This document shows, one piece after another, positions 5,032 to 22,227 of a stretch of 64,000 bases of DNA. The notes under the pieces were generated by a model. It saw nothing but the letters and a program-made list of their open reading frames with translations, ran no database searches and was not told where the DNA came from. This stretch comes from Candidatus Heimdallarchaeota archaeon (lineage in GTDB: Archaea; Asgardarchaeota; Heimdallarchaeia; Hodarchaeales; Hodarchaeaceae). The stretch covers positions 2,514,055 through 2,578,054 of the forward strand of contig CP070695.1 in the NCBI GenBank assembly GCA_020353515.1, in the 5' to 3' direction. A program made the position numbers and the translations under genes. Numbering within the stretch: position 1 is the stretch's first letter; each line of letters opens with the position of its first letter.

Positions 5032-8000
5032 TCAAGATCTCCTAGGTCTCTGTACCAAGTAAAAAACGATAGAAATCGCGAATAGAATAACAATCCCAAA
5101 AGGTACATTCCATGAAGGAAGATGGTCTAGATTGAAATCGGAGCTTTCTCTGGTAGTCGAAGTTTCAGAATCTATCCAAGATTGCCACCACTCAAAATCA
5201 TTAAAATAATATTCTCGACTTTCATATATCCACCCTGAGTCTGAAAAACAAAGATTATCGGCTGAATCATAGATATTAATAGACTGGATACGAGCGCGAA
5301 GAAAGTTATATTGATCACTGAAATAAAAAGATGTTGTATCAATGGGTACAATAATGGAAATATCGACACCTTCCTCGAGATATTCGATGATAGAAGTATA
5401 CATGTAATGACTATTCCAATTATAATCATCCCACATGGTCAGTTCAATCTCTACGTCTATTCTATAGGTGTCTGTTTCGGTAACATTTATTCCAATGTAA
5501 AAACGCAGCTCCTCAAATTCACCGTCACTATCAGTACTCTCACCTCTATCAATGAAGGTATTTGTTAATAAGATAGGAGGAGTATCAAACAAGTTTCTAT
5601 TGTATGTTTTCGTGATGTATGAAGTTACGGAGCGGTCGAGTAGGTTATAGAACCAATTGTAAATTCTCACATTCTCAATAATAAAGTATGTGCTATCGAA
5701 AAGAGGGTATAAAAAAATTGTATCAATAGAAAGAGATATGTTTTCAATTCCTACTTGAAAAAATACGTCAAAGGATTGCCACTCTGAGTACTCCCAGTGA
5801 CGTGAACGTATATAAAATTCAATGTGGTATTGTCCTGATCGAGTAACATTTGTCTCTAACTCAAACGTTAACGAATCATAGTTGCCATTAGAATCTGTGT
5901 CAGCCCCAGAATCCCAAAAATTTCCTGTTAATATAACCCCTGGACGATCAAATTCCGAAAATTTGTATTGGCGAGTAATATACGGACGATTAACATGATC
6001 GACTTCTCCCCATGTGTTCAAAACTGATATATGATCAATAATAAACGCAGTATCTAATCTTAGGGAGTAAGGGAGGGTGGTATATAACTGAACTGATATA
6101 TTATAAATACCCCAATCATACACATCAGTTTCAGAAGCCCCCCAGAAGTTTGAATCCCAGACAGGGATATAGGGTACTACTGAAATCTCAATCCTGTAAG
6201 AATCCTCTTGAGTTATGTTAACTTCTACATCAATGATTATTTCATCAAACTTCCCATCCTCATCTGTATCTATTCCTCTATCCCAATAGTTACCTGTTAG
6301 AAAGGCAGGGGGAGGATTGAACTCTGTATAGCTAAAAGCTCTTGAAATATAATTAAGATACCCCTCATCAACAACATTCCAATAGTAATATTCTTCGCGG
6401 ATGATTCTACTGTCGGTTAACATAAAAGAGCTATTCACCCGAAAACGGTAGATAATAGACCCGTCAATCTCAAAGGAAATCCAATGTAATCCTTCATTCA
6501 GAAATAGGTACTGATTATCCCAGAAATCAAATCCACCTTCAACTTGTTCGAGTCGAATCTCTATTCTATAATTACCTGAACTAGAGACATTAATCTCTAT
6601 ATCAAACGCGAGTACTTCAAATTTACTATTGGATTCATAGTCAATTCCTCTTGTCCAGAGGTTCCCTGTAAACCAAGCATCAGGAAGATCAAATTCTGTA
6701 TAATTATAGATACGAGTAGTATAAGGAAGGAAGACTTCATCTAATGTATTATAATTCTCATCTCTAATTCGTAAGTGGTCAATTGCAAAGGTACTATTAG
6801 TACGATACGAATGGACTAACATTGTATCAAAAGAAAGGGTGATATTATGTATTCCCCTAATCCAATAGTCACTATACTCTGTGTATTGATCCCAATATCC
6901 CTGATCTAGATCAGGAAGAAATAATCTCATATAAAGAGTATAGCTCCCAGTACTTGTAATATTTACCTCAAGACCAATTTGAATTTGATCAAATTTCCCG
7001 TCAGAATCAGAATCCAATCCAGAATCCCAGAAGTTACCTGTTGCGAAAGCTCGTGGGATATCGAATTCAGTATAATTATATGCACGGGTAGTATATGCGT
7101 AGGAGGCTTCCTCCATCAGACCATTATCCTCATTTCTAATCCGTACGTATTCAACTTCAAAGGAAATGCTATTATTACGAAGCGAATATACTAAGCTAGC
7201 GTCAAAAATCAAGGACACATTATGGAAACCCTCATTCCAATAGGCACCATGGTTTGCCCAATTACTCCAACCTACACGATCATTATTTGATGCTATTAAA
7301 TGCATATTTAGCCAGTAATTACCTGTGAGAGTGATATTAACCTCAGTTTTTATTACTAATTGGTCAAATTTCCCATCAAAATCAGTATCAACTCCCCAAT
7401 CCCAGTAATTGCCTGTTAAAAATTTACGAGAAGTTACGTGGATTTCTACCGAGTAAGAATTAATAGTTTGTAGACCGATCAAAAATTGCATGTCAATTCC
7501 GTAGAATTGGAATCTCACACTTACATTAAGAGGACCATCAACATGATCCTCTGGAATATCTAACCTTATAACAATTGAAGTGTCCTCTGGTGTTAAGAAT
7601 TCCCCCCAGTTTATAACTTGACCATCCGCGAATGGTGTTGAGGAGTCAAGGTTCATTGCCAGATTACAGTATCCAGGATCTTTGATTTCGACTGTAAATT
7701 CAAAAATAATGTCATCAAATACCCCATCATTGTCAGTATCGTTTCCATAGTCAGATATCCCCGTTATTTTTGCATTTGGTACTTCGAAAGCACTTGCATC
7801 ATAATCCTGAGATGTTTTGTAAGAAAAAAGCATTTGCAAATCTTCGATACCATACCACCAATAATGTCGAAAGGTTCCAACCCAAACGTAATAGGAGCCA
7901 TTTGTACCGATTTGATTAATAGCTTGACCTGAGAAGGAGAGGAGAATCTCATTCCCGATATCCCAGCGGTAAAGGATAGAAATCCCCAATAAATTCCCCT

Positions 8001-8304
8001 CACTGTCATTTAAGACGCCATAAACACCGAACTCACGATCTGTTGATTTAGGGATGCCCAAATAGATGATCAAACGGTCATAATAGCCATTACGATCGTC
8101 ATCAACAGGATAATCAGTCCAAGAACTATTGTCAGGTAGAAACTCAGTACTGGACTGACTAACTAAAGAGGAAATTTCTGATACATTCCCTGTGGTCTTA
8201 GATATACTCCCTTCCATTTGATAAGGATCACTCAAACTTCTTAAATTCAGCCCTAGTATAAAAAATAGACCAAGTACAACTCCTATCCGTTTAAGACTGG
8301 CCAT
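5032..8304 (-). CDS. large secreted, C-terminally anchored surface protein with ~8 repeats containing DxDxDG loops
   Basis: Signal peptide; repeats of TGN(Y/F)WDxGxDTDxDGKFD...EVN(I/V)T; C-terminal TM plus RPRRS. Confidence 0.85.
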   Translation of the reverse strand: MASLKRIGVVLGLFFILGLNLRSLSDPYQMEGSISKTTGNVSEISSLVSQSSTEFLPDNSSWTDYPVDDDRNGYYDRLIIYLGIPKSTDREFGVYGVLNDSEGNLLGISILYRWDIGNEILLSFSGQAINQIGTNGSYYVWVGTFRHYWWYGIEDLQMLFSYKTSQDYDASAFEVPNAKITGISDYGNDTDNDGVFDDIIFEFTVEIKDPGYCNLAMNLDSSTPFADGQVINWGEFLTPEDTSIVIRLDIPEDHVDGPLNVSVRFQFYGIDMQFLIGLQTINSYSVEIHVTSRKFLTGNYWDWGVDTDFDGKFDQLVIKTEVNITLTGNYWLNMHLIASNNDRVGWSNWANHGAYWNEGFHNVSLIFDASLVYSLRNNSISFEVEYVRIRNEDNGLMEEASYAYTTRAYNYTEFDIPRAFATGNFWDSGLDSDSDGKFDQIQIGLEVNITSTGSYTLYMRLFLPDLDQGYWDQYTEYSDYWIRGIHNITLSFDTMLVHSYRTNSTFAIDHLRIRDENYNTLDEVFLPYTTRIYNYTEFDLPDAWFTGNLWTRGIDYESNSKFEVLAFDIEINVSSSGNYRIEIRLEQVEGGFDFWDNQYLFLNEGLHWISFEIDGSIIYRFRVNSSFMLTDSRIIREEYYYWNVVDEGYLNYISRAFSYTEFNPPPAFLTGNYWDRGIDTDEDGKFDEIIIDVEVNITQEDSYRIEISVVPYIPVWDSNFWGASETDVYDWGIYNISVQLYTTLPYSLRLDTAFIIDHISVLNTWGEVDHVNRPYITRQYKFSEFDRPGVILTGNFWDSGADTDSNGNYDSLTFELETNVTRSGQYHIEFYIRSRHWEYSEWQSFDVFFQVGIENISLSIDTIFLYPLFDSTYFIIENVRIYNWFYNLLDRSVTSYITKTYNRNLFDTPPILLTNTFIDRGESTDSDGEFEELRFYIGINVTETDTYRIDVEIELTMWDDYNWNSHYMYTSIIEYLEEGVDISIIVPIDTTSFYFSDQYNFLRARIQSINIYDSADNLCFSDSGWIYESREYYFNDFEWWQSWIDSETSTTRESSDFNLDHLPSWNVPFGIVILFAISIVFYLVQRPRRS

Positions 8305-8552: not shown

Positions 8553-9611
8553 ATGAATTTTACTCGTACTAACTATGATAAATCCGATATGGTGTTATTT
8601 GGGGGAATAGTCTTCTCAGCTATATTTACTCTAGTGATATGGATATCAGGTTTTGCATTAGATCGGTTTATTCTCGAACCAGATCAAGGTCCAGCTTGGT
8701 ATTATTGGCAGTTACCCAATCCAGTTCTTATAAACCAGTTAATTCTTTGGGTATTGTATTTAGCTCATCAATTGACCGTTTGGGGACTTATTTATTATGG
8801 GTATCAACAATATAAGACAACAGGTAAGAAACCTACTACAAATCTAACTACTTATAACATTTTAATAATCATCGCTAACGTTTTTTTCATTTTTTTACAC
8901 CTTATCGAAACTCAATTGTTCTATGATGGATTAGCTCAAGATGTGCCCATTTGGACTAGTCAAGGATCAGTTATCATTATGCTCGCAGTAATGCTAATAC
9001 TTGAAAACAAACGAAGAGGATATGTGTTTGGAAAGCAAGTTGGGAAACCAATTACTAAAGAAGTTGTTGAGTTCTTCCGATTTGGACACATGTACATTTT
9101 CGCTTGGGCACTTGTTTATACATTTTGGTTCCATCCCATGGATAATGATCCTCAGTTATTAACAGGCTTCTTCTATATGTTTTTACTCTTCACGCAATTA
9201 TCTGTAGCATTTACAAAAAGTCATTTGAATCGAAAGTGGACTGCATTATTAGAAGGATTTGTAGCATTTCATGCAGTTGTAGTAGCTATCAATAACACCT
9301 TAAGTTTTGGTAGCAGCGATATGTGGCCAATGTTTTTGAGTGGCTTTCTCTTTATGGTGGTCGCGACTTATATTTATGGGATTAGGCTAAAGAAAAGAAC
9401 CATCTTAACCATCTCATTTGTCTATATAATTTTCCTAATTTGGATTTATATCCCTGTCCCCTTAGGTTATGGACGTGATATTACTTATCTCTTTCGATTA
9501 GAAGCATTGTGGATTCCAATTATTCTCTATTTACTTGGATTGCTCTTTGCAACGATTATTTTTACCATTCAAAAAGTGAAAAAGGGAAGAAAAATCGAAA
9601 GTGTGTCGTAA
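8553..9611 (+). CDS. polytopic membrane protein of unknown function
   Basis: ~9 TM; PDQGPAWYYWQLP, YDGLAQDVP and YTFWFHPM blocks; several intramembrane His. Confidence 0.75.
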   Translation: MNFTRTNYDKSDMVLFGGIVFSAIFTLVIWISGFALDRFILEPDQGPAWYYWQLPNPVLINQLILWVLYLAHQLTVWGLIYYGYQQYKTTGKKPTTNLTTYNILIIIANVFFIFLHLIETQLFYDGLAQDVPIWTSQGSVIIMLAVMLILENKRRGYVFGKQVGKPITKEVVEFFRFGHMYIFAWALVYTFWFHPMDNDPQLLTGFFYMFLLFTQLSVAFTKSHLNRKWTALLEGFVAFHAVVVAINNTLSFGSSDMWPMFLSGFLFMVVATYIYGIRLKKRTILTISFVYIIFLIWIYIPVPLGYGRDITYLFRLEALWIPIILYLLGLLFATIIFTIQKVKKGRKIESVS

Positions 9612-9643
9612 AAAGAACTATCAACATATCAGTGTCTATATTA

Positions 9644-10354
9644 TTAATTAGTGGTTAAATCGATCAAACATTTCCGTCTTTCCGTAAGGATACCTTCAAG
9701 AATTTCTCGAGTGATCTTTTTCGATGTTTTTACATTATTAGGCATATTATAATAGCGATCTAGATCAAGAGGAGGACCAAAATAAATTCTTACAGGAGTT
9801 TGGAAGTTTAAGCGGAAAAATTTTCCTACAGGAATGATGTTATTCGTTCCATACACGAAGACAGGCACAACTTTCGTTTGAGGGCCTGCTAATTTAGCAA
9901 TCCAGCCAGCACCAACTTTGATTTTATTAATTTGAAATCTTCCTGTTCTTGACCTCCCACCTTCTGGATAAATTCCAACTGATTCACCATTCTTTAACAA
10001 ATTGAGGGAGATACGAATGAATTTTTCTCGTTCTGCTGGCCCTCGTCCGACAGGAAAAGCCAATTCATACTTCGTCCAACGAAACATGATTTTTTTCATG
10101 AAATCCGCTGCTCCTGTAAAACGAATAGCACGTTTAACAGGAAACGCCGCCACAGCTGTAAAAACAGAGTCAACATGACTCAAATGATTGGAAGTGAGCA
10201 ATGTGGGTACTCCTTCAATGGGTAAGTTTTCTTTACCATACACCTTAAACGGAATCGCCCAAAAAAGTAATCTAGCTAAATTCAATAGGAAATAGTGGAT
10301 AAATCGTCTCCGAAATCCAAGTTTCTTTCGTATATTATAGGGCTCCACTATCAA
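9644..10354 (-). CDS. plsC: 1-acyl-sn-glycerol-3-phosphate acyltransferase (PlsC/LPLAT family)
   Basis: NHLSHVD (HX4D) and YPEGGRS motifs. Confidence 0.85.
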   Translation of the reverse strand: MIVEPYNIRKKLGFRRRFIHYFLLNLARLLFWAIPFKVYGKENLPIEGVPTLLTSNHLSHVDSVFTAVAAFPVKRAIRFTGAADFMKKIMFRWTKYELAFPVGRGPAEREKFIRISLNLLKNGESVGIYPEGGRSRTGRFQINKIKVGAGWIAKLAGPQTKVVPVFVYGTNNIIPVGKFFRLNFQTPVRIYFGPPLDLDRYYNMPNNVKTSKKITREILEGILTERRKCLIDLTTN

Positions 10355-10495
10355 ATCCTCAAGACCTGTATTAATTTCAACTGTTTTATTTCTTTTATTC
10401 GATAATTGATTTCTTCACATTTTTTGGCCAAGATTTATACCAATGAAAGTCATTATTCAATTCTAAACCTCATATCCCTAGATTTATCATTAGCT

Positions 10496-11869
10496 TTAGA
10501 TGGTTTTAAACATCGTTTTCGCTTTTTCACGCATGATCTTATGGTCTACAATTGGATATGGATAATCCTCTAAGTCTTTTGGATGTTTTTGATAGAGATT
10601 GTGGATTATTTTAGGATCGTAACCTCGTAATTCAGGAATGTATTGCTTTATATAGTCACATTGTGGATCAAACTTTTTTTGTTGTAACCAAGGGTTAAAA
10701 ATTCTAAAATAGGGCACTGGATCACAACCTGTACTCGCTGCCCACTGCCAATTGCCATTATTTACTGAAATATCATAATCCACTAATTTTTCTTTGAAAT
10801 ATTTTTCTCCCAACTGCCAATTAATTAATAGATCTTTTGTAAGGAAGGATGCGACAATCATCCTTACTCGGTTATGCATCCAACCAGTGGCATTTAGTTG
10901 CCTCATTCCTGCATCAACAATAGGAAATCCAGTTTTCCCTTCACACCAGGCTTGAAATAGTCCCTTATCATTAGTCCAGTCAAGTTTGTCATATTTTGGT
11001 CGAAAAGATCCATTAAACACATGAGGAAAATGAAATCCAATGTAGATGTAGAAATCTCGCCAATAAAGCTGCCTTAAAAGGGCATAATTGCCAGATTGTT
11101 TAATAGCATGATAGACTTCACGAATAGATACTGTTCCAAATTTAAGATGAGCTGATAGATGTGTGGTTCCCGTGATTGCAGGAAAATCCCGTTGTTCCTG
11201 GTAATTTTTATGATTTTGAATCTGATCAAGAAGTTCCAATCCTTTTGTTCTTCCTCCTTTAACCCAGATGTTTGGATTGTAATAATTTAGAATTTCCCTT
11301 AATTGATCCATTGAAATTGTATCGAATAACTCGTCGTTATAATAGGTATTTTTTGGTGCTTTTACAGGTTCATTGACTAAAAAGATCTGAGATTTTTTAA
11401 AAAAGGGAGTAAATATACTGTATGGAGTTCTATCACCTTTTTTAACAACTTCGGGTTCATTCAGTAATAAATCTGCGGTTATGATAAGCTTTGTGCCAGT
11501 ATTACTGCAAATTCTCCGAATTTTTGTGTCTCGCCTGTGTGAATATGGGGTATAATCACGATTCATTATCAATCTATCAATACCTAGTGCTTCTCTATTT
11601 AATAAATCCTTGATTATGATCTCTGGTTTATCGTGGTAGATAAATAATCTAGAATTATTCATGTTGAATTTATGAAGAAGATCAAGCACTGAATCCTTCA
11701 AAAACTGTTTAGCGTTAAAACTAAGGTTTTTATTCTTGATTAGATATTTATCTAAAATAAAAATAGGAATAACTTTCTCAGATGAATTAAGTGCATGTAT
11801 TAGTCCAGAATTATCTTCGAGCCTTAGATCTCGTCTAAATACAAATAAAGAGATCCCATTTCTTTTCAT
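10496..11869 (-). CDS. phrB: deoxyribodipyrimidine (CPD class I) photolyase
   Basis: FRRDLRLEDN, LSAHLKFG, GKTGFPIVDAGMRQL, WMHNRVRM, NNGNWQW, FRIFNP. Confidence 0.95.
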   Translation of the reverse strand: MKRNGISLFVFRRDLRLEDNSGLIHALNSSEKVIPIFILDKYLIKNKNLSFNAKQFLKDSVLDLLHKFNMNNSRLFIYHDKPEIIIKDLLNREALGIDRLIMNRDYTPYSHRRDTKIRRICSNTGTKLIITADLLLNEPEVVKKGDRTPYSIFTPFFKKSQIFLVNEPVKAPKNTYYNDELFDTISMDQLREILNYYNPNIWVKGGRTKGLELLDQIQNHKNYQEQRDFPAITGTTHLSAHLKFGTVSIREVYHAIKQSGNYALLRQLYWRDFYIYIGFHFPHVFNGSFRPKYDKLDWTNDKGLFQAWCEGKTGFPIVDAGMRQLNATGWMHNRVRMIVASFLTKDLLINWQLGEKYFKEKLVDYDISVNNGNWQWAASTGCDPVPYFRIFNPWLQQKKFDPQCDYIKQYIPELRGYDPKIIHNLYQKHPKDLEDYPYPIVDHKIMREKAKTMFKTI

Positions 11870-11875
11870 CTTAAA

Positions 11876-12775
11876 TCACTCATTATCTAGTAACACTCTT
11901 ATCGCTTTTAGAGCACTTTGTTCCTTGTCTCGAATTTCTAACATGATATCGAAATTCATTGCTTTGGTACTTTGAATAAATGCCCGAAATCTATTAAGAT
12001 CAATTGAATTAGCATGCCTCCCTAGTTTTGCATTGGGTTGATTTGAACTCCAATCTAACATCAAAATTCCGTCTTTTGTTTCTGTCCATGTCTCCTGTGC
12101 TAGTTGGAGAGCTTGGACAACAGTTTCGTTGTTGTTTTTAATTGAATGATGAAACACATCAAAGACAACAGGAATATCAATTTCTTTATGGATAGTCAGA
12201 CAATTCTGCAGATCAAATAATCGATCATCATTCTCAATAACTAATCTCTTTTGAATATTGTCTGGTAATCTCAAATAATTTTTAACAAATCTCTCCATGG
12301 CTGCAGTTTTATCCCCATATACCCCACCTACATGTAATTGAACCTTTGCTGTTGTATCAAGACCCATTCTGTCAAGAACTAGTGTATCATAGAGTAACTC
12401 TTGTATGGATTTGTTAACAACTTCTTCTTTGGGTGAATTAATGATTGTGTACTGCCCAGGATGCATAGAAATCCTAAGATCATGTTTTCTAATATAGGCC
12501 CCAATATTTTGGAGCTCGTGCTGAAAAAAGTCCAAAATCTCCTCAAGTGGTAGTGAAACTGGATGAGATGCAAATGGTATGAAATCAGCAATCCTATAGA
12601 AGAGTAAATGATTTTCTTGATTGAATTGAAGAGTCTTTTTAATACATGTCAAATTCGATTTCACTGTTGAAAGAAGTTTTTCTCTATTGTAGGATGATAA
12701 GCGAATGTTTTTGTCTGGTTTACATCCTGTGGATGAAAAAGCATTTCCTACATAACCTAATTTCAAAATATTCAC
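11876..12775 (-). CDS. uvsE: UV DNA damage endonuclease
   Basis: IPFASHP, RISMHPGQY, LHVGGVYGDK, RLVIENDD, VFDVFHH, DIMLEIRDKE. Confidence 0.93.
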   Translation of the reverse strand: MNILKLGYVGNAFSSTGCKPDKNIRLSSYNREKLLSTVKSNLTCIKKTLQFNQENHLLFYRIADFIPFASHPVSLPLEEILDFFQHELQNIGAYIRKHDLRISMHPGQYTIINSPKEEVVNKSIQELLYDTLVLDRMGLDTTAKVQLHVGGVYGDKTAAMERFVKNYLRLPDNIQKRLVIENDDRLFDLQNCLTIHKEIDIPVVFDVFHHSIKNNNETVVQALQLAQETWTETKDGILMLDWSSNQPNAKLGRHANSIDLNRFRAFIQSTKAMNFDIMLEIRDKEQSALKAIRVLLDNE

Positions 12776-12826
12776 ATCTGGATACAGAACTCTTCTTTCA
12801 GGAAAGGAATGTAATTGAACAAGTGC

Positions 12827-13249
12827 TTACTGTTGAATAATAAGTCCTAGAATCGTTATTACTATGGCTACAACCACACCAATGAAAATTGATTGCAAAG
12901 AGATTATTATGGCTTTATTCCGGTCTTTATTCCGCTCTATTTCATCCTCAATCTTTATTGTCGTTCCAAGATGAACTGAAACATTAGCAACGGAAGAAAA
13001 TCCATATGCAGCACAAAATTTTTGCCTCGCTTGAATGAAGCCAATTGCTGCCATGGTTCCAGGGAAAATAAAAAGAAATCCTAGTAGTGGGGTGAGATTC
13101 AAAAAGAAAACACTAGATATGTATATTAGAAATCCAATACCTATTATTGCTAAACCAACAAAGCCTATCCTTTTCCGTTGAGTAATTTCTGCACTGCCTA
13201 TATTACATCTTCCTGCGACGTATTCAGTATTTGAGGTCAAAGTTCTCAC
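12827..13249 (-). CDS. small membrane protein with CNIG and FC Cys motifs
   Basis: YVAGRCNIGSAEI, GFIQARQKFCAAYG, 3 TM. Confidence 0.7.
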   Translation of the reverse strand: MRTLTSNTEYVAGRCNIGSAEITQRKRIGFVGLAIIGIGFLIYISSVFFLNLTPLLGFLFIFPGTMAAIGFIQARQKFCAAYGFSSVANVSVHLGTTIKIEDEIERNKDRNKAIIISLQSIFIGVVVAIVITILGLIIQQ

Positions 13250-13264
13250 TTGAAAATCATAAAC

Positions 13265-13370
13265 TCACTTTTTTGGAAACCAAGGAATAAGGAGAGAAGT
13301 CCTTTGATAATCAGAATATTCCAAGTTATCTTCAAATCTTCGCTTTAACAAGGGAATTCCAGATACTCTA
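13265..13370 (-). pseudogene. C-terminal relic of a DUF1295-family gene
   Basis: Manual translation RVSGIPLLKRRFEDNLEYSDYQRTSLLIPWFPKK*, aligns with the C-terminus of ORF 17627-18502 (KVSGVPLLEKR...YEEYKNRTPILIPNPFK); no in-frame start. Confidence 0.7.
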
Positions 13371-13422
13371 TTTTTAGAATCAGTCTTTCATAAAAAAGAA
13401 AAAAAGAGAATATGTCTAAATT

Positions 13423-14250
13423 CTAGACAAAAATTAATCCAGCGAACACAAGCCAAGCAAGAGCTGATTTGGCTACCAAACTTAATATCTGGTAACCTCG
13501 TTCTCCAAAAAGATAGTCTTTCCATGGACCGATTTTCTTGTACTGAAGAAACATGTTAATCGCAAAACTGTTAAAGAAAAGGAAGTACATAACTACTGCG
13601 ATATAGACAAAAGTTGGAATAGCATCGCCAACACCGGTATCAAAACTTAGAAATGTGTCAACTATGACAATCCAAGGAACAATGCCAGCAATCCATCCTA
13701 ACCAATAGGGTAACCAGCTAGTTTTTTCAGTGTATTGGTTAATTCTTTCCATAAATAAACCAAACATGTTCATTAAGAAATTTAGAACAAAAATCAAAGC
13801 TATGATCCAAAAATCAAGTATTCCAAACGCTAAAGAAATAAAAATGATCATTACCGAAGAACTGAAAGAATACTCCCACCAACGTATTGGATTCATCTTT
13901 TTCTTTAGATTATCCACATATGAATTGTTTAAAGGGAAGGCGATAAGGAAATGCGCAAGAGCAGACATAAGCAAAAAACTTGCTAATAAAATACCCGCTA
14001 CGTTCTCAAATGTGAAAAATACGCTTGGATCAGGAGCAAAAATCGGCTTTGTTCCAGTTAATTGTTTTATTACCAATCTAGATTTGTAAATGTCTACAGA
14101 AAAGTTTTTTATCTCGTCTATAAACAAACTAAGTGTAAATATCAATACACTTTGAACTAGATGCAAAATAGCCATAGCAATGTTGAATTTTTTCAGATGA
14201 CTCATACTTATAGGTGAAGTTTCACCATCTACGAATGAAAATTCTGTCAT
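13423..14250 (-). CDS. heR: heliorhodopsin
   Basis: LHLVQ (TM1 His), LAHFL (TM2 His), NPIRWWEYSFSSSVM (counterion Glu), GERGYQILSLVAKSALAW (retinal Lys); strong SD AAGGTGAGGT. Confidence 0.96.
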   Translation of the reverse strand: MTEFSFVDGETSPISMSHLKKFNIAMAILHLVQSVLIFTLSLFIDEIKNFSVDIYKSRLVIKQLTGTKPIFAPDPSVFFTFENVAGILLASFLLMSALAHFLIAFPLNNSYVDNLKKKMNPIRWWEYSFSSSVMIIFISLAFGILDFWIIALIFVLNFLMNMFGLFMERINQYTEKTSWLPYWLGWIAGIVPWIVIVDTFLSFDTGVGDAIPTFVYIAVVMYFLFFNSFAINMFLQYKKIGPWKDYLFGERGYQILSLVAKSALAWLVFAGLIFV

Positions 14251-14263
14251 ATTTCTACCTCAC

Positions 14264-14283
14264 CTTAAATCGACAGATTTAAG
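14264..14283. promoter_or_regulatory. perfect inverted repeat CTTAAATC-N4-GATTTAAG between the putative TATA box and the SD of heR
   Basis: Seen directly; TATA-like TTTTTAAT on the minus strand at ~14310-14317. Confidence 0.5.
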
Positions 14284-14447
14284 ATATTCATAGCGCTAAT
14301 CAAGCAGATATTAAAAATTTACTCAAATTTTTTCGAAACACTTGATTTTAGCTTGAAACAAGAATTTAATAGATTTTCAAGAAATTTGAAACATACCAGA
14401 GATCAAAGGAAATCGATTTCTCACGCTAATAAAAAATCTTCATTCCT

Positions 14448-15773
14448 TTAAGTACGCTGGTTAAACCCACACCGAGTACAGACTGTTAAACCCTCTCGAA
14501 TCTGAAATCCACATTGAATACATGGGTTCTCTTTAAGTAAAGACCGTGTTTTTAAAAATAAAATTCCTGCAATTAAAAAACCAATGATAAGAATAAATGC
14601 ACCCAAATAATAAGGATATGCTGCATCTAGCTCGAAAAGAGCTGTTCCTACTAAAGGACCTCCTATTCTCATAAAAGATCCAATTCCTTGGTTTAAACCT
14701 AAAATTACTCCTGAATTTTCTTTGGGAGTTTCTTTAGATAAAAATGCTCCTATGGTAGGATTAGAAATTGAAGATCCAAACGCAAGCGGAATGACCCAGA
14801 GGCTCATCTCGAAGAGAGAAGTGACAGTACTCAAGCCTATGAAGCCAATAATTAAGAAAAATATTCCTGCAGTAATGAGAGTTGTATCAGAGAAGCGATT
14901 TGATAAGGGGATAATCAGGCCTGCCTGAGTAATTATGACAACTAATCCCACTACAAAAAATACAAGACCTGCAAGAGATTCATTTAAACCAAAGCGGACT
15001 TTTCCCAGTAAGGCCAAAGTCGCTTGCATTTTTGAAAACGCTAATGAAACACCAGCAAATAAAATTATCGTTAATAAGACGTTAGGGTTTTGCAAAAGAG
15101 TTTCACGTAAGCTGACTTTTACGCTAGCTCCTTGAGAGATTATTTCTTTTCTTCTTCCCCGCATTTCCTCAGTTAATGACTCAGGTAAGTATTTAATTGC
15201 TGCAAGGAAGTTAACTATGGCAATGACAGTCGCAAATACAGCTGGAAGTGCGTACCCGCCAATAAAAGACAGAACTCCACCGATTCCAGGTCCTAATGCG
15301 AATCCAAGTCCAAATGCTGCACCTAATAATCCAAAACCTTTTGCACGATCTTGCCCAGAAGTTGTATCAGCAATATAGGCTTGACTAGTAGGTAAGGTCG
15401 CTGCAGTAAACGCTCCTCCAACTAAGCGAGACATAAGAATTATGGTTAATGAATCAATGAAGATTAATGCTGCTAAACTCAGCATACCTAATCCGAGTAC
15501 TGTCCCAAATAATCCTGCTAGAATGACAGGCCGACGCCCCCATCGATCTGAGATCCACCCCCAGACAGGGGCAAAAGTAAAACTCATTAATGAATAAACA
15601 CTAGCCAGAATGCCATATATAAATGGTGTTGCTCCCAATTCTAACGTCCAAAACGGAAGTAGCGGGATTATAATTCCAAATTCTAGTAAATCGATGAATA
15701 CTGCTAGGAATAAAACACCTATTGGACCAATAGATAGGTGTGAAGGAGGAATTTTGTTCTCTGTAATTTCCAT
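14448..15773 (-). CDS. TetA-like (DHA1) MFS exporter with a C-terminal zinc ribbon
   Basis: GWISDRWGRRP motif A, GFALGPGIGG motif C; tail CIQC-x10-CTRC. Confidence 0.9.
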   Translation of the reverse strand: MEITENKIPPSHLSIGPIGVLFLAVFIDLLEFGIIIPLLPFWTLELGATPFIYGILASVYSLMSFTFAPVWGWISDRWGRRPVILAGLFGTVLGLGMLSLAALIFIDSLTIILMSRLVGGAFTAATLPTSQAYIADTTSGQDRAKGFGLLGAAFGLGFALGPGIGGVLSFIGGYALPAVFATVIAIVNFLAAIKYLPESLTEEMRGRRKEIISQGASVKVSLRETLLQNPNVLLTIILFAGVSLAFSKMQATLALLGKVRFGLNESLAGLVFFVVGLVVIITQAGLIIPLSNRFSDTTLITAGIFFLIIGFIGLSTVTSLFEMSLWVIPLAFGSSISNPTIGAFLSKETPKENSGVILGLNQGIGSFMRIGGPLVGTALFELDAAYPYYLGAFILIIGFLIAGILFLKTRSLLKENPCIQCGFQIREGLTVCTRCGFNQRT

Positions 15774-15943
15774 AATGTCTTAAACAACCAATATCCGCTT
15801 TAAATCACTCATGGGCGCATCTTTTGTAAATGATTCAATCAATTGCCAAGATTAACAATATTATTGATGAAGATCTTATACGATCACTGACCTTTTTGAA
15901 ATTCCTGTTAAGTAAATCGGCACCAAGACGAAAGGTATTTATT

Positions 15944-16411
15944 TTAATCTTCGATTAACGCATACTTTTCAGGAGAACCCCATATTTCGACTTTATTGAA
16001 CTTATCCTTCTTTGATTGGAAATGTATCCATAACTTTGTTTGGTCAAGGAATGGATTAGCATGGAATAACGCCTGATCACCATATCGAAACGCTTCTAAC
16101 ACTAAGGGCAATTCTTGACGAAAAATTCTATCACGAAACTTCGATGTGCCAATTCCCTTACTGATTTGACAATAGACATGAAGTGAATATGTTTCTTCAG
16201 TTTTCAACCATTCTGCCAAGACCTCATCACGCATTATTCGTATTTGCCATCCTTTTAGTTGTTTTTTGTTAAATTCATGAGCAATAGTTAAAAATAAATC
16301 TCCTGTTCGATCTGAATGTGTTAAAGTATAGCATCGGGGAACTAGGGGGGAATCAACAGTTGTGGGGGATAAAAAAGTCACATGTAGCTTTTTAGGATCT
16401 AAACGACTCAT
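15944..16411 (-). CDS. Staygreen (SGR, Mg-dechelatase family) protein
   Basis: KKLHVTF, PRCYTLTHSDRTGDLFLTI, RDEVLAEW, LHVYC, IFRQELPLVLEAFRYGD. Confidence 0.92.
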   Translation of the reverse strand: MSRLDPKKLHVTFLSPTTVDSPLVPRCYTLTHSDRTGDLFLTIAHEFNKKQLKGWQIRIMRDEVLAEWLKTEETYSLHVYCQISKGIGTSKFRDRIFRQELPLVLEAFRYGDQALFHANPFLDQTKLWIHFQSKKDKFNKVEIWGSPEKYALIED

Positions 16412-16461
16412 ATCTAAACCTCCTTCATTTTACTTAATGGAACGGATAGTTTACGATAATT

Positions 16462-17412
16462 TTAATGCAATTCCTTTTCCTTTGCCATTATCTCCATACC
16501 ACTGAAGCTTCCCACTCCATCAAATTCAATTTTCTTCTTTAAATCGATAAATCTTAGATTAATTGTTGATGTTAAACTTTCAAGGACTTTTCCAGTCATT
16601 TTTCCGTTAATAGGGCTCCTTAATTTAGAGGTTTTTGCTTGAGTAGCGTCAATCTCTATCCTTTGGTTCTTTTTCACTAATTTAAATGAGACCTGATTCT
16701 CATTAATAGTCAAGTCCTTCAATTTTGCTCTATTATAAGTTGAAAAGAGATTTAATCTGTTTTTGTACAAGAATCCCGCCAAATATCCTGTGAATGATCT
16801 TCCTAAATATGGAATTCTAGCAATAGATGCCATAAATGAGACCCGTTCTTCGGAAAAATGATTAGATTGCATCCAAACATATCCACTAGGGAATGATCTT
16901 CCCCAATCCTTTTCTATATATCCTCTCCCGTGATTAAAAGAAATATCATCTCCGTTAATACTTAGATTTCCATAAATCTCGTGATCAAAGCTTAATACAG
17001 CGTGAGAACATTCCATACGAGGTAAAAAAGCAAAAGGGCCCATGGCTCCTGGGGAAAGGAATTTTATTGGCCAAGGCACTTGATCTATGAAAATAAGTTC
17101 CCCCTTAACCACTTGACCTTGTACGTTCAGATCTAGTTTTATTTTATCAGTAGAGAAGTAATTATTTGCAATAGTCACTTCAAATTTATCTTTCTTATAT
17201 TGAAATTTATTCAGATTAAATTTATTATATTGTAAATCCCCCGATATTCCATTGAAGATTTGAATGAAGGCTTGACTAGGATGAGCGGAGGAAAAACCTG
17301 GAATAATTGCTATCGCCACTTTTCTATTATAATCAACCAGCTTATAATACCAGCCTTCAAATCGAAACTTACCGATTCCATGGCAAATTTCAGGCTTCCA
17401 AATATTTCCCAA
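16462..17412 (-). CDS. tocopherol cyclase (VTE1) family protein
   Basis: FEGWYYK, GAMGPFAFLPRMECSH, GRGYIEKDWGRSFPSGYVWMQSN. Confidence 0.88.
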   Translation of the reverse strand: MGNIWKPEICHGIGKFRFEGWYYKLVDYNRKVAIAIIPGFSSAHPSQAFIQIFNGISGDLQYNKFNLNKFQYKKDKFEVTIANNYFSTDKIKLDLNVQGQVVKGELIFIDQVPWPIKFLSPGAMGPFAFLPRMECSHAVLSFDHEIYGNLSINGDDISFNHGRGYIEKDWGRSFPSGYVWMQSNHFSEERVSFMASIARIPYLGRSFTGYLAGFLYKNRLNLFSTYNRAKLKDLTINENQVSFKLVKKNQRIEIDATQAKTSKLRSPINGKMTGKVLESLTSTINLRFIDLKKKIEFDGVGSFSGMEIMAKEKELH

Positions 17413-17626
17413 AAGTATTACACCAGTACCACAAGAAAATTGGCTTTTAAATTGAATTCATTTATACAACAAGATAAAAAGAAACATTGTAAGTCCCGTC
17501 CACCCTTATTCTTAATCGATTCCTTAAGAAAATCAGAATTTTCTTTTCTAGACATGTATTGGTGTTTAATTAGAAATACCCTTTGTGACTAAATTTGGTA
17601 TTTGTATTCAAAGTTAAAACATTATA

Positions 17627-18502
17627 CTATTTGAATGGATTTGGAATTAATATAGGAGTCCTGTTTTTGTATTCCTCGTAATCTTCTTGACCACCCCACT
17701 TGTCATCAGCTCTTTTTTCAAGTAAAGGAACACCACTTACCTTAGTTAAGAGTAATGTCACAAAAACAGGAGAAATCAATGTTAGCCATCTCCAACCTTG
17801 AAGTGTTGGAAGTGCAATTATTGCGATACCAATCCAGAGGAGAATTTCTCCAAAATAATTTGGATGTCGTGAGATTGACCACAATCCAGTAGTAATGAAT
17901 TTTTCTTTATTCTCAGGGACAGATCTGAACTTACTTTTCTGATAATCTGCAATAGCTTCAAAACCAAAGCCTATGATCCACACTAAAAGACCTACTAAAC
18001 CAATAAGACCAAAATCCGTTCTTTGTTCTACTGTTATCGCTGCTAATGCCGCTGCTAATGTAAAGCTTACCCATAAACCCTGAATAGTCCAAGTTAAAAA
18101 AAAACGTGTACCGGATTGTTTGATCTCCTTGAAGCGTTTATCTTCCCCCTCTTTTAAAATTCGTCGGAACAAGTATGTCCCAAGACGAAGCGCCCAGATT
18201 GAGACCAATACCATTAGTAAAATGGAGCGTGTATCAATTTCAGGACTCAAGGCAACTGCTAAGAATATAACAGTTATGTAGGTTAATGAACCAGTTAGAT
18301 CAAAGAACTTCTCAGTCCTTTTGATATATGCAGGTATGAATGCAATCCATTGAATTATAAAGGCAAGAGCAACACCGATTGCAAATACTGGTATTCCACC
18401 AAGAACAGTCACGCCTCCCTGACTTCCAGCGAGAGTAAGACATATAGCAATGAATAAAATTATGATTATAGCAACCAAGGACTGAATATCTTTCTCATTC
18501 AT
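17627..18502 (-). CDS. DUF1295 family (steroid 5-alpha-reductase-like) membrane protein
   Basis: TEKFFDLTGS, WALRLG, EDKRF, EAIADYQK, GLWSISRHPNYFGE. Confidence 0.9.
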   Translation of the reverse strand: MNEKDIQSLVAIIIILFIAICLTLAGSQGGVTVLGGIPVFAIGVALAFIIQWIAFIPAYIKRTEKFFDLTGSLTYITVIFLAVALSPEIDTRSILLMVLVSIWALRLGTYLFRRILKEGEDKRFKEIKQSGTRFFLTWTIQGLWVSFTLAAALAAITVEQRTDFGLIGLVGLLVWIIGFGFEAIADYQKSKFRSVPENKEKFITTGLWSISRHPNYFGEILLWIGIAIIALPTLQGWRWLTLISPVFVTLLLTKVSGVPLLEKRADDKWGGQEDYEEYKNRTPILIPNPFK

Positions 18503-18552: not shown

Positions 18553-18568
18553 TTGACTAATTAGTCAA
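18553..18568. promoter_or_regulatory. perfect 16-bp palindrome TTGACTAATTAGTCAA upstream of the DUF1295 gene
   Basis: Seen directly, ~50 bp upstream of the ATG. Confidence 0.55.
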
Positions 18569-18633: not shown

Positions 18634-20451
18634 TCATCCAGTGATCGGTACCCAATCTAGACTTTGATGCTCATAATACTGCTTATAGAGTTGGCCATAT
18701 TTTCCTCCTTGAGCAAGCAAAGCCTCATGAGTCCCCTCTTCAATAATTTGCCCCTTTTCCATCACAATAATTCGGTCTGCATTCAGAATAGTGGAAAGCC
18801 TATGGGCAATAATGATTGAGGTCCGATTCTCAAGGAGGACTTCAAGTGCCTCTTGAATGATCGCTTCGGTGTAAGCATCCACCGATGACGTTGCTTCATC
18901 TAGAATAAGAATTTTTGGATCCGTTAGAAGCGCCCGAGCAAAGCTAATTAATTGTTTTTGACCTACAGAAAGCCCTCCTCCTCTTTCCCCCACTTGTGTT
19001 TGAATTCCATCATGTAAATATTCGATAAGTTCTTCTGCATGGACAGATCGAATGGCTTTCCATAGATCCTCTTCTGATGCATCTCGTCTACCATACCGAA
19101 TATTCTCCTCAATTGTCCCGGAAAAGAGAAAAACATCTTGTTGCACCATTCCGAGGTTCCGTCTATAAGAATCCAGTTTTAAATCTCTGATATCGATTCC
19201 ATCAATCTTAATGGATCCACCTTGAAATTCATAAAAACGAGCTAGAAGGTTAACTAAGCTGGATTTTCCCGCGCCTGTGTGACCGACTACTGCAAGTTTC
19301 TCTCCTTTTGCTATTTTTAAACTGAACCCTTTAAAGACCCATTCACCATCGTTTCTGTAACTAAAGTCAACATTTTCAAAAACAATCTCCCCCTCCAAGG
19401 CATCAACCCCGCGAAGCACTGGATTCTGCTTAACATTAGGTTTGGAATCTAATATATCTAGAATTCGTTCATATGCCGCCATCCCAGCACTCAGTTGAGG
19501 AAAAAAAGTAGCAAGAATCATGATAGGGCGAAAAAAACGCTGAATATACAATATATACATTAAAATAATTGCAGTGGTTGATACTCCCTGGAGTACAAGC
19601 TGACCACCTAGATACACTATTGTTACAAGTATTAAGGCGGTAATTGTTTCAAGGATTGCTCTCCAGACATGTGTCACTGCAGTCAATCGATAAGCTGTTC
19701 CAAAATACTCTTTATTTGTCTCATGAAACTGTTCAGAAACTGTAGCTTCTTGCCCATAACTTTTGCAGACTTGTATTCCTTCGATTGATTCAACCATGGC
19801 ATTGTTGATATTCCCTATTGACTTTCGATAAGCTCGACTCACGATTCTAGCAAGCTTCCGCAGAGAAAACATTAACACAAAGAGGAAAGGAACACCCGCT
19901 AGAGTAATCAGAGCTAAGGTTGGATTCAACCAGAAAAGAATTGCGAAGGTCAAGGCACTCACAAGTAAATTACCCATAGTGTCTGCTAAAAGGATCGTAG
20001 TGTTTCCAAAGTCTAAAGCATCATTTGATACTCTTGAATTCAGACTTCCACTCAGATGTTTGTCGTAAAAACTCATATCTTGCTCCTGTAACTTATCAAA
20101 GATATCCATACGAAGATTTTCTAGAAAATATGGCATGAAATTCCCAATCTCCCTACGACGGAGACTAAACATGACCCAAATTGCAGCGGATAAAATGAGA
20201 TATACAACACCAGCACCTAGAACTATTGAAAAATCACGATCTGGTTTTTCGAAAACATCAACGGCAAAACCAACAATGAGTGGAATAATTATATCAGCAA
20301 CAGTAGAAATTAGAATGAAAAGAGAAATAAGCGTGACACTCTTCTTGAACGGAACAATTCGGTGAGCATATCGAGTGAATAACTCTCGATCTGAATACTC
20401 TCGCTCTCGTTTTTCACTGAATACTCCGCGATAGAGTCCCATATTAATCAC
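18634..20451 (-). CDS. heterodimeric type IV ABC exporter subunit (TMD+NBD)
   Basis: GHTGAGKS, degenerate signature LSVGQ, canonical ILILDE. Confidence 0.93.
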   Translation of the reverse strand: MINMGLYRGVFSEKREREYSDRELFTRYAHRIVPFKKSVTLISLFILISTVADIIIPLIVGFAVDVFEKPDRDFSIVLGAGVVYLILSAAIWVMFSLRRREIGNFMPYFLENLRMDIFDKLQEQDMSFYDKHLSGSLNSRVSNDALDFGNTTILLADTMGNLLVSALTFAILFWLNPTLALITLAGVPFLFVLMFSLRKLARIVSRAYRKSIGNINNAMVESIEGIQVCKSYGQEATVSEQFHETNKEYFGTAYRLTAVTHVWRAILETITALILVTIVYLGGQLVLQGVSTTAIILMYILYIQRFFRPIMILATFFPQLSAGMAAYERILDILDSKPNVKQNPVLRGVDALEGEIVFENVDFSYRNDGEWVFKGFSLKIAKGEKLAVVGHTGAGKSSLVNLLARFYEFQGGSIKIDGIDIRDLKLDSYRRNLGMVQQDVFLFSGTIEENIRYGRRDASEEDLWKAIRSVHAEELIEYLHDGIQTQVGERGGGLSVGQKQLISFARALLTDPKILILDEATSSVDAYTEAIIQEALEVLLENRTSIIIAHRLSTILNADRIIVMEKGQIIEEGTHEALLAQGGKYGQLYKQYYEHQSLDWVPITG

Positions 20452-20454
20452 ACA

Positions 20455-22227
20455 TTAATTTTTCACTATTAATTCTGGTAAAATAAGATGTTTACCAAAG
20501 ATCCGTCTGTAATCTTCTGAACTCTGTAGTAATTCATTGTGACTCCCCTCAGCGACATTTCTTCCCCGTTTAAGTACAATAATTTTGTCAGAAGTTCGGA
20601 TTGTATGCAATCGATGAGTGATGACTAGAGTTGTTCTATTCCTGATTACATTCTCCATTGCTTGTGTTATCTTTTCCTCTGTCTCGCTATCTACTGCAGA
20701 TACGGAATCGTCAAGAATAAGAATTTCAGGGTCAGTCAAGAATGCACGAGCAATAGCAACACGCTGTTTTTCTCCACCAGAGAGACGTGTTCCTCTCTCT
20801 CCGACAATGGTGTTATATTCTTCAGGAAACTCCAAAGCGAATTCTTCAACTTGAGCAAGCTTTGCTGCATCCATAATTGCTTCATGGGTTGCACTCGGTC
20901 TACCAAACGCGATATTATCACTTATCGTACGCGAAAAAAGATAGATATCTTGCTCTATATACCCAATGTGCCGTCTTAATTGATCAAGAGGATAATTTCG
21001 AATATCTATCCCATCTAATAAGATGGTTCCCTCTTGGGGTTCATAAAGACGTAAAAGCAACTTCACCAGAGTCGTTTTACCGCATCCCGTTGGACCTACA
21101 AGAGCTACTCGTTGATATGGCTCGATTTTGAAAGATAGATTCTTTAAAATCGGAGTATTTTTTGTTCCATCATCTCCATAAGCAAAAGTCACATCTCTAA
21201 ACTCAATTGTACCTTTAAAAGTATCTGGCCAAGTGAGAGCACTTTCTTGTTGTTCTTCCTCTTCCAATGACAAACTTGTATATAATCGTGAACATGCAGC
21301 AAAACCACTCATCATATCATTAGTAGCCCAAAAGATCATATTAGTAGGATCAATGAGAGTGATTAAGAGTAAATTAGCTGCAATCAATGCCCCTATCGTT
21401 AACGTACCCTCGAATACAAATACACAACTCATAAGAAATGTCACGCCTATTGCTAAATACAGTACTAATAATGGATAAAATCTTGCCTGAACTTTTGTCT
21501 CTCCAATCCGATTGTCCCGAAAGCCGATTACTGCTATGTGAAATTTTTCCCGTTCCAATTCTTCTGCAGTGAATGATCGTACAATCGCAACACCACTTAT
21601 GCTGTCCTGTAACACTACAGCCACATTTGAGTGGGTAACCATTCGGCCAGCAGCCCATGGAGCAATTTTCTTTCGGTAATCTAATATAAAAATCATGTAG
21701 AAAATAATGAAGGGGGAACAAATCAAGGCGAGTCTGAGATCAAGGGTTACTATCAATAGAAATGCTGCCATTATAACTTGAAAGAACGGATATAGGTAAA
21801 AGGCCCCATGAGAAATCATAGTATTGATAATGCGTAAATCATTAGTTGCTAGAGCTTGGAGATCACCTGTGCGTGCTTTATCATGATACCGTAATGGTTT
21901 ATATTGAAGGGTGTCGAAGAATTCTTGCCGCATATTTTGTTCAGTCTTTAACCCTAAATAATGCCCGATCATCATTGTTATATAATCCATAGCATTCCGA
22001 GTAACAAAAACTGCAAGTGCAACGGCGAGTAACAGTACTAAATTAGCTAAATCACGGGTTACAAGAGTTGTATCTATGATATATCCAATAACAATTGGAA
22101 TGATGACCCTTGAGAAGGTAACAATAATAATACCAACAAGAACACCCACCACCAAGGATTTTTGCCTAGCAAGATGGTATAAAAACCACTTCCTATAGCT
22201 CGATATCTTTGTTAAATCCAAACTCAT
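20455..22227 (-). CDS. heterodimeric type IV ABC exporter subunit (TMD+NBD)
   Basis: GPTGCGKT, LSGGE, degenerate Walker B ILILDD. Confidence 0.93.
   Translation of the reverse strand: MSLDLTKISSYRKWFLYHLARQKSLVVGVLVGIIIVTFSRVIIPIVIGYIIDTTLVTRDLANLVLLLAVALAVFVTRNAMDYITMMIGHYLGLKTEQNMRQEFFDTLQYKPLRYHDKARTGDLQALATNDLRIINTMISHGAFYLYPFFQVIMAAFLLIVTLDLRLALICSPFIIFYMIFILDYRKKIAPWAAGRMVTHSNVAVVLQDSISGVAIVRSFTAEELEREKFHIAVIGFRDNRIGETKVQARFYPLLVLYLAIGVTFLMSCVFVFEGTLTIGALIAANLLLITLIDPTNMIFWATNDMMSGFAACSRLYTSLSLEEEEQQESALTWPDTFKGTIEFRDVTFAYGDDGTKNTPILKNLSFKIEPYQRVALVGPTGCGKTTLVKLLLRLYEPQEGTILLDGIDIRNYPLDQLRRHIGYIEQDIYLFSRTISDNIAFGRPSATHEAIMDAAKLAQVEEFALEFPEEYNTIVGERGTRLSGGEKQRVAIARAFLTDPEILILDDSVSAVDSETEEKITQAMENVIRNRTTLVITHRLHTIRTSDKIIVLKRGRNVAEGSHNELLQSSEDYRRIFGKHLILPELIVKN

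Follow-up and report, generated by a model that had tools for sequence, protein, structure and literature searches.

A 64,000-nt stretch of the genome of Candidatus Heimdallarchaeota archaeon, a non-photosynthetic Asgard archaeon of the order Hodarchaeales (contig CP070695.1, positions 2,514,055 to 2,578,054; hereafter the window), carries a gene island in which a heliorhodopsin (HeR) and a homologue of the plant Staygreen (SGR) Mg-dechelatase are found together with genes for UV-damage repair, transport and membrane lipid metabolism. That these genes constitute a functionally linked light response is a reading we hold with considerable confidence. The more specific proposal, that this is a light-damage defence island of the Hodarchaeales archaeon built from modules that are conserved HeR/SGR neighbours across numerous archaea and bacteria of non-phototrophic habit, and working as outlined below, appears on gene content to be the probable one, if less securely so. 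The evidence comes from a comparison of SGR neighbourhoods across species, from the joint occurrence of HeR and SGR at the genome level and from the residues retained by the SGR protein itself.

Taking SGR as the anchor, we fetched 80 SGR loci of other species from 398 found, many of them on short contigs of 3-10 kb. Open reading frames (ORFs) near SGR were clustered label-free, the clusters were named by Pfam and all ORFs were then searched with the cluster hidden Markov models (Table 1). HeR turned out to be the commonest neighbour, the linked loci belonging to Hodarchaeales, Anaerolineae, Dehalococcoidales and one Thermoproteota single-cell genome, and adjacent HeR-SGR pairs are often separated by <100 bp. 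The chance expectation for a single-copy gene near SGR is about 0.6% of loci, and for HeR about 0.25 loci (20 kb of a 3.5-Mb genome); at least one recognised light gene is present in 44 of the 80. The neighbourhood that the original prediction took to be light-related is hence recurrent and not a coincidence, as the counts for HeR, photolyase and DUF1295 indicate. In a quick IQ-TREE phylogeny of SGR that otherwise tracks taxonomy, adjacency to HeR is dispersed over the tree and its supported branches require at least six changes of state, so that the HeR-SGR linkage is not one inherited block.

Table 1. Genes found near SGR in the 80 loci of other species.
Neighbour	SGR loci with neighbour <=10 kb	Adjacent and co-directional
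HeR	22/80	15
Photolyase	19/80	1
MFS	15/80	11
DUF1295	14/80	2
AhpC	13/80	7
MerR + B12-binding regulator (CarH/LitR-type)	12/80	1
SDR/DUF2867	12/80	4
DegV	10/80	1
CrtI-like	10/80	0
UvsE	8/80	1
DUF523-DUF1722	8/80	4
CrtB	7/80	1
Alpha/beta hydrolase	7/80	5
TspO-like family	7/80	1
Tocopherol cyclase	4/80	1
Rieske oxygenase	4/80	0

Co-occurrence is also seen at the level of whole genomes. The window's class was represented by 83 genomes, of which 30 have HeR and 18 an intact SGR, and all 18 of the latter encode HeR (12/12, 3/3 and 3/3 by family), including cases with the two genes on separate contigs. The class holds two degraded SGR copies as well, one a 51-aa fragment and the other truncated at the C-terminus and devoid of the invariant E142, W144 and G145; in neither host genome was a HeR found. 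Among 121 evenly drawn genomes of the class Anaerolineae, 8 have SGR, 21 HeR and 7 both, against 1.4 expected (hypergeometric 1e-5, or 7e-5 without the centre genome), with four directly adjacent HeR-SGR pairs. Related genomes are not independent and these numbers therefore overstate the co-occurrence, but the pattern still repeats in two domains.

Other members of the island are shared with relatives in pieces. Same-genus genomes carry separate blocks, namely HeR-SGR-PlsC, DUF1295-CNIG-UvsE-photolyase (CNIG being a small membrane protein) and crtI/crtB-CarH-like-x-SGR-MFS. PlsC directly adjoins HeR-SGR in three same-genus loci (76-79% identity), and DUF1295 orthologues adjoin HeR in same-genus genomes, two of them without SGR (G060, G061), and in family f7. 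A pair of ATP-binding cassette (ABC) transporter genes is located directly upstream of HeR-SGR in Anaerolineales (L073), the order ABC-DUF1295-SGR-MFS is found in Hodarchaeota (L045), and the ABC half at 18634..20451 of the window is 89% identical to the ABC gene adjoining DUF1295-SGR-MFS in L030/L045.

A second light-related locus of the host genome, 0.97 Mb upstream of the window, is a carotenoid cluster comprising an SDR, a TspO-like protein, a lycopene-cyclase-like protein (a weak match), crtI, crtB and a regulator that combines an HTH_11 and a B12-binding domain. This regulator (L124:8348-9505, + strand) begins 15 bp after crtB and has an HTH_11 head instead of a MerR head; from its domain composition it may be an archaeal variant of CarH/LitR. 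A family scan found no CarH/LitR-type regulator within the window. Behind crtB, the CarH-like gene and a weak PNPOx-like ORF sits a truncated SGR remnant of ~60 residues with H32 changed to Q (L124:10050-10300, + strand, about G000:C1:1543050-1543300). At the same place the same-genus relative L050 has an intact SGR-MFS pair, whose MFS is 84% identical to that of the window and carries the same Zn-ribbon tail, from which we conclude that the SGR-MFS pair was relocated from one light-response locus to another, or duplicated there with subsequent loss of a copy.

The TspO-like proteins form a family of Trp-rich 260-aa membrane proteins without a Pfam match (L124:3661-4443, - strand; L046:5821-6597; L074:11795-12595; L120:65-838) whose members in Hodarchaeales, Anaerolineae and Thermoproteota are encoded in carotenoid/CarH clusters and as neighbours of HeR or SGR. 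For its AlphaFold2 (AF2) model (pLDDT 84) the only high-probability Foldseek matches are TSPO (probability 0.92-0.98, target TM 0.6-0.72, E about 1), a pointer that comes from the fold search alone and with weak E-values, the family having no sequence match in the Protein Data Bank (PDB).

The SGR of the window is predicted to be catalytically intact. It keeps R26, Y28, T29, H32, D34, D62 and D112 (D112 aligning with D114 of AbSGR-h), all of which are invariant in archaeal and bacterial homologues; a profile of its relatives matches PDB 7Y5Y at 232 bits, and its identity to Anaerolineae homologues is 50-55%. Among the latter, AbSGR-h (PDB 7Y5Y) is a highly active chlorophyll a dechelatase that discriminates ring substituents (PMC8531759, PMC11006732). 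Mutagenesis of AbSGR-h found D34 and D62 to be essential, the mutants being soluble and inactive, with H32, R26, Y28, T29 and D114 in supporting roles (PMC8531759). The window protein is of the same family and the same length and has every essential residue, but its host is an archaeon and its activity a predicted one, and the AbSGR-h papers are silent on gene context and natural role.

Genes for HemB, HemC, HemD and ferrochelatase were not found in the closed host genome, whereas 8-12 of 14 reference genomes gave positive controls; no COX1 was found in the host genome either. The genome nevertheless encodes a haem catalase (665 bits, C1:3102617-3103765), which implies that tetrapyrroles come from outside and that any Mg-tetrapyrrole met by SGR is foreign. 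By its gene content the host looks like a haem/tetrapyrrole auxotroph. The original prediction had seen in SGR a Mg-dechelatase acting on pigments from algal detritus. Its enzymatic part is upheld by the family match and the complete set of essential residues, and its ecological part fits a genome unable to make tetrapyrroles, for which a chlorin would be exogenous; as the substrate in vivo, chlorophyll is a candidate.

The efflux-type MFS accompanies SGR as a conserved operon partner, and its transport of chlorins is putative. Among NCBIfam models it scores highest with the Tet(A/B/C) family (175.9 bits, below cut-off), and an MFS that is 31-36% identical to it over the full length adjoins SGR co-directionally in 11 of the 80 loci, including Chloroflexota. 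The CxxC...CxxC Zn-ribbon at its C-terminus (window 15650-15773 region, protein residues ~419-441) is confined, among SGR-linked MFS, to the Hodarchaeales copies (window and L050), the Chloroflexota orthologues being without the tail. One Chloroflexota contig carries a tocopherol-cyclase-like gene, an MFS gene and SGR with overlapping ends and, upstream of them, a Rieske/VanA_C oxygenase gene, and a metagenome contig adds an alpha/beta hydrolase to the Chloroflexota-type SGR set; by analogy, these two additions correspond to enzyme types of plant chlorophyll breakdown. Another tetrapyrrole-flavoured SGR context occurs on the Thorarchaeota chromosome CP070658.1 (L041:7713-10461), where two URO-D family genes lie immediately upstream of SGR and a radical SAM gene downstream.

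We propose that the island would work as follows. HeR would sense visible light at the membrane, the CarH-like B12 regulator elsewhere in the genome would control the carotenoid genes, and photolyase and UvsE would repair UV lesions. Soluble SGR would strip Mg from chlorophyll-type pigments picked up from phototroph debris, which must be their source because the cell is unable to make them, and the adjacent efflux-type MFS, possibly with the ABC pair, would expel the product. The AttH-fold tocopherol-cyclase-like enzyme would act on an isoprenoid or polyene chain, and DUF1295 and PlsC would adjust membrane lipids. The gene identities, catalytic residues, linkage, co-occurrence and absence of tetrapyrrole synthesis are observed here; the substrate of SGR, the direction of transport and the regulation by light are what we infer. 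De-metallation and export of chlorins is a plausible, putative mechanism and the best one available. That the job of SGR in this archaeon is the removal of exogenous Mg-tetrapyrrole photosensitisers, with the MFS expelling foreign chlorins, we regard as a serious possibility falling a little short of probable. The integrated light programme originally predicted thus gains from the recurrent linkage, the intact SGR and its efflux-type MFS partner, while a chlorin substrate, a chromanol product and co-expression of the genes are putative.

Besides the relatedness of the genomes compared, several observations weigh against the defence-island reading. HeR and SGR are split by the MFS gene in the window, with gaps of 170-200 bp (197 and 173 bp on the flanks of HeR). 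In Thor-, Hermod- and Bathyarchaeia the direct neighbour of SGR is AhpC, often together with a fasciclin gene, and not HeR. A search of 50 SGR genomes without a nearby HeR located one elsewhere in 22 and none in the other 28, including the closed Anaerolineales chromosome CP070811, so HeR is not obligatory for SGR. The links of tocopherol cyclase (4/80), PlsC and CNIG (Hodarchaeales only) are narrow or weak. As to the chemistry, one preprint reports that prokaryotic homologues differ widely in dechelating activity when assayed, and that the assayers of the bacterial ones regard chlorophyll dechelation as promiscuous. A ring-opening oxygenase or esterase was not found in the window. Finally, removal of Mg yields pheophytin, which is also a photosensitiser, and dechelation alone therefore does not detoxify.

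A refinement of the proposed scheme would make HeR the direct light-gated regulator, which binds SGR and turns Mg-dechelation on only when pigments are dangerous. The analogy is with published precedents in which HeR binds and modulates the product of a neighbouring gene (glutamine synthetase, photolyase, OmrDE), and the adjacent, co-directional HeR-SGR arrangement in 15 of 80 loci and in two domains would suit it, as would the confinement of intact SGR to HeR genomes in the window's class. We nevertheless consider it tentative, since SGR also occurs without HeR, beside CarH/LitR-type regulators or AhpC, and since an MFS gene intervenes in the window. Slightly less likely still is that the native substrate of prokaryotic SGR is another metal-tetrapyrrole or a non-tetrapyrrole, lipid-soluble compound of the light response, handled for example in concert with SDRs, carotenoid genes and the AttH-fold cyclase-like enzyme, the dechelation of chlorophyll in vitro being a side activity. 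The variable and reputedly promiscuous activity of the homologues speaks for it, and so do SGR neighbours that comprise carotenoid, SDR/DUF2867, TspO-like, SOUL and URO-D genes but not chlorophyll-specific enzymes, as well as the anaerobic life of several hosts (cultured Hodarchaeales), in which oxygen-dependent phototoxicity is limited. Yet the residues for chlorophyll dechelation are invariant in archaeal and bacterial homologues, AbSGR-h combines high activity on chlorophyll a with discrimination of ring substituents, and the Chloroflexota loci with an esterase and a Rieske oxygenase near SGR are reminiscent of the plant pathway.

These same esterase and Rieske oxygenase genes of some SGR loci, together with a catalase that needs haem in a genome without tetrapyrrole synthesis, could instead point to feeding, with an auxotroph importing chlorophyll-type molecules through the MFS and removing Mg as the first step towards the phytol chain or the macrocycle. 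This is improbable: the MFS belongs to the drug/H+ antiporters, an efflux type, the genome has no ferrochelatase, we know of no route from chlorin to haem, and the genes that dominate around SGR encode light sensors, DNA photorepair proteins and peroxiredoxins instead of catabolic enzymes. Chance neighbours, or genes that arrived jointly by horizontal transfer without a shared function, would be compatible with the gaps of 130-214 bp between most genes, which allow separate promoters, and with a gene order that is found, in its exact form, in no other genome examined. With the same families recurring around SGR in varied orders and orientations in several phyla, and co-occurring at the genome level even when unlinked, this explanation retains very little probability.

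For the defence-island reading, which we prefer, a broader extension is conceivable, although we think it rather unlikely in its full form: HeR and SGR as an ancient cross-domain pair, a light-gated module that strips Mg from scavenged chlorophyll-type photosensitisers and pumps the product out in organisms that make no tetrapyrroles and live among phototrophs. If true, the role of the pair would be the ancestral SGR job, before green plants took SGR for leaf senescence, and heliorhodopsin would have a physiological role in the closest archaeal relatives of eukaryotes. Two questions meet in this linkage, namely the cellular role of heliorhodopsin and the role of Staygreen homologues in chlorophyll-free organisms. 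It also bears on how plants gained the committed enzyme of chlorophyll breakdown, and it is testable with proteins already expressed by others (AbSGR-h and several HeRs). A Hodarchaeales lineage with a sizeable light-defence kit and tetrapyrroles from outside argues for life near phototrophs, in lit sediments or mats.

Surveys of HeR neighbours list DUF1295, tocopherol cyclase, photolyase, UvdE, ABC/MFS transporters, AhpC, SOUL, PNPOx, DegV and cobalamin-binding proteins, and propose roles in oxidative stress and lipid remodelling (Chazan et al. 10.1101/2021.02.16.431466; Bulzu et al. PMC8612252). The same families surround SGR here. By contrast, Staygreen is absent from the text of these surveys and from the part of their Dataset S3 available to us, in which Tocopherol_cycl is listed, and the archaeal island is without DUF2177 and DegV, with PlsC and CNIG in comparable places. 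No paper in the searchable literature was found to treat heliorhodopsin together with stay-green, staygreen or dechelatase. The combination was predicted to be undescribed; this holds, within the papers searched, for the Staygreen link, whereas HeR neighbourhoods have already been published for photolyase, UvdE, tocopherol cyclase, DUF1295 and ABC/MFS transporters.

HeR is reported to bind photolyase (TfHeR, PMC9769723) and the heterodimeric ABC exporter OmrDE (OcHeR, PMC11109279), and its binding to glutamine synthetase is cited there. Of the ten partner groups published for these regulatory HeR operons, the island has two, a photolyase and an ABC pair of the heterodimer type, but SGR-linked HeRs are most often partnered by Staygreen, which lies outside the ten. 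The adjacency that marks a partner pair is found for HeR-SGR in four lineages among the 80 loci and in the four Anaerolineae-sample genomes; the window HeR, on the other hand, stands alone between its two gaps, and a partnership in the sense of binding is putative. The plant PAO/phyllobilin pathway (SGR, pheophytinase and the PAO Rieske oxygenase) likewise begins with SGR, and some Chloroflexota loci add an alpha/beta hydrolase and a Rieske/VanA_C oxygenase, whereas the window lacks hydrolase and oxygenase alike, its host makes no chlorophyll and a transporter belongs to the module.

CarH/LitR B12-dependent light regulons comprise carotenoid genes and photolyase in Myxococcus, Thermus and Streptomyces. 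A MerR + B12-binding regulator, crtB, crtI and photolyase each lie within 10 kb of SGR in 7-19 of the 80 loci; the window differs in having no such regulator, that of the host being HTH_11-headed, and inspection by eye of eight upstream gaps and the crtI/crtB gap found no shared operator. A perfect 16-bp palindrome upstream of DUF1295, TTGACTAATTAGTCAA (18553-18568), was considered as an operator and dropped, being present as a single copy in the window and in none of the fetched loci.

The window is part of a single-contig closed genome of 4,943,496 bp; GC content is uniform along the window, and genes for Ras-family GTPases stand on both sides of the locus. A sediment metagenome (low depth; the run may be the source sample) yielded short-read unitigs that cover the locus at 100% identity and span the junctions PlsC/photolyase, photolyase/UvsE/CNIG/HeR, MFS/SGR/TocC and DUF1295/ABC, TocC being the tocopherol-cyclase-like gene. 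A look for sequencing runs containing the locus listed none of RNA. A chimeric or bacterial contig is unlikely given the single-contig genome and the unitigs bridging gene junctions, and the assignment to an Asgard archaeon (Hodarchaeales) is supported. One sediment unitig (run X1) rejoins position 15157 to 13360 with 18 extra letters, and may represent a related strain with another gene order around HeR/MFS.

Genes of the island and its immediate neighbours are listed in Table 2, with protein families assigned by Pfam and NCBIfam models with curated cut-offs. The nine minus-strand genes and the convergent membrane ORF of the original prediction are present where it placed them, as judged from the ORF list and family scores, but the co-oriented run is longer and includes the upstream ABC pair (18634-22227), a DUF1232 gene and a Ras-type GTPase. 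Intergenic gaps in the island range from 3 bp (between the ABC halves) to 214 bp, with 6 bp between UvsE and photolyase, and several transcription units are therefore more likely than one operon. The spacing suggests the units ABC-ABC, DUF1295, TocC-SGR, MFS, HeR, CNIG-UvsE-photolyase and PlsC.

Table 2. Genes of the island, in coordinates of the 64,000-nt stretch.
Feature	Position	Strand	Family match
ABC exporter half (ABC_membrane + ABC_tran), first of heterodimer-type pair	20455..22227	-	Pfam 115.5 + 123.4 bits
ABC exporter half, second of pair	18634..20451	-	ABC_membrane 118.2, ABC_tran 112.7 bits
DUF1295 membrane protein (steroid-reductase/ICMT-like superfamily)	17627..18502	-	PF06966 232.5 bits
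Tocopherol-cyclase-family protein, AttH-like double beta-barrel	16462..17412	-	PF14249 50.7 bits (cut-off 26.6), partial
Staygreen (SGR) Mg-dechelatase homologue, soluble, 155 aa	15944..16411	-	PF12638 171.8 bits
MFS transporter, DHA1/Tet(A)-like efflux type, C-terminal Zn-ribbon tail	14448..15773	-	MFS_1 197.3 bits
Heliorhodopsin (HeR)	13423..14250	-	PF18761 280.7 bits (cut-off 26.7); NF038020 equivalog 301.5 bits (cut-off 100)
CNIG membrane protein, 140 aa	12827..13249	-	no Pfam/NCBIfam family
UvsE/UvdE UV-damage endonuclease	11876..12775	-	PF03851 201.9 bits; TIGR00629 equivalog 188 bits (cut-off 124.45)
Class I-type CPD photolyase/cryptochrome-family flavoprotein	10496..11869	-	DNA_photolyase 110, FAD_binding_7 275.1 bits
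PlsC-type acyltransferase	9644..10354	-	PF01553 55.9 bits
Convergent polytopic membrane ORF	8553..9611	+	no Pfam

The closest solved structure to the HeR of the window is TaHeR 6IS6 (196 bits). E126 (RWWEY, within the RWxEY motif) and K261 (SLVAKS) are the same residues in TaHeR and are invariant in 20 SGR-linked HeRs; we take K261 to be the Schiff-base lysine of helix 7 and E126 the counter-ion glutamate of helix 3. Of genes for retinal precursors, the host genome has crtB, crtI and the weak lycopene-cyclase match, and a search of it for BCD/Blh gave no match, a result that is uninformative as the control genomes were equally silent. The flavoprotein at 10496-11869 is assigned, from its sequence matches, to the photolyase/cryptochrome family level: both Pfam domains are present, and its best NCBIfam matches fall below cut-off (8-HDF type, 387 against 884.6; another, 317 against 506).

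The tocopherol cyclase of the original prediction is retained as a family match, but only profile positions 145-333 of 335 are covered, there is no NCBIfam match and the AttH-like fold is also that of cofactor-free cyclases, of prenyl hydratases and of a steroid lyase, enzymes with isoprenoid or polyene substrates. Its AF2 model (pLDDT 94) has as best Foldseek matches AttH 2ICH, the Diels-Alderases Fsa2/Phm7, kievitone hydratase and 25-phosphosteroid lyase (E 1e-9 to 1e-6), and no VTE1 structure is among the matches; NCBI names its relatives 'tocopherol cyclase family protein'. The model fits chemistry on an isoprenoid or polyene chain, chromanol formation being putative. The gene is near SGR in L044, L058, L106 and one JGI contig, is beside a SOUL protein and crtB/crtI in another Hodarchaeales genome and occurs in unrelated context on a Thorarchaeota chromosome and a 2.8-Mb ENA contig. 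Its membership of the set is loose.

Among the additions to the island, PlsC and CNIG are specific to the lineage. The former has the HX4D motif (HLSHVD) and PEGGRS, and recurs near SGR/HeR in Hodarchaeales only; orthologues of the latter (43-54% identity) adjoin UvsE-photolyase or DUF1295 in six other Hodarchaeales loci. Neither CNIG nor the 8553-9611 ORF has a Pfam match even at E up to 5, and their look-alikes in the Atlas are unnamed clusters; a presumed likeness of CNIG to YgaP/DUF2892 found no support. The protein of the 8553-9611 ORF is His-rich and polytopic, with well-modelled Atlas look-alikes (TM 0.88-0.96) from Thorarchaeota and Chloroflexota. It was considered as a retinal supplier and rejected, showing no conservation beside HeR or SGR in the loci examined; none of the 80 SGR loci has a relative of it, and it is probably a bystander outside the system. 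Immediately outside the island lies a 1090-aa ORF without Pfam family (5032-8304, - strand). Further out, Ras/Roc-family small GTPases are located on both sides of the region (2510-3172, + strand; 22870-23538, - strand), and an NYN-domain protein (1647-2243) and a molybdopterin oxidoreductase (3232-4269) are encoded nearby.

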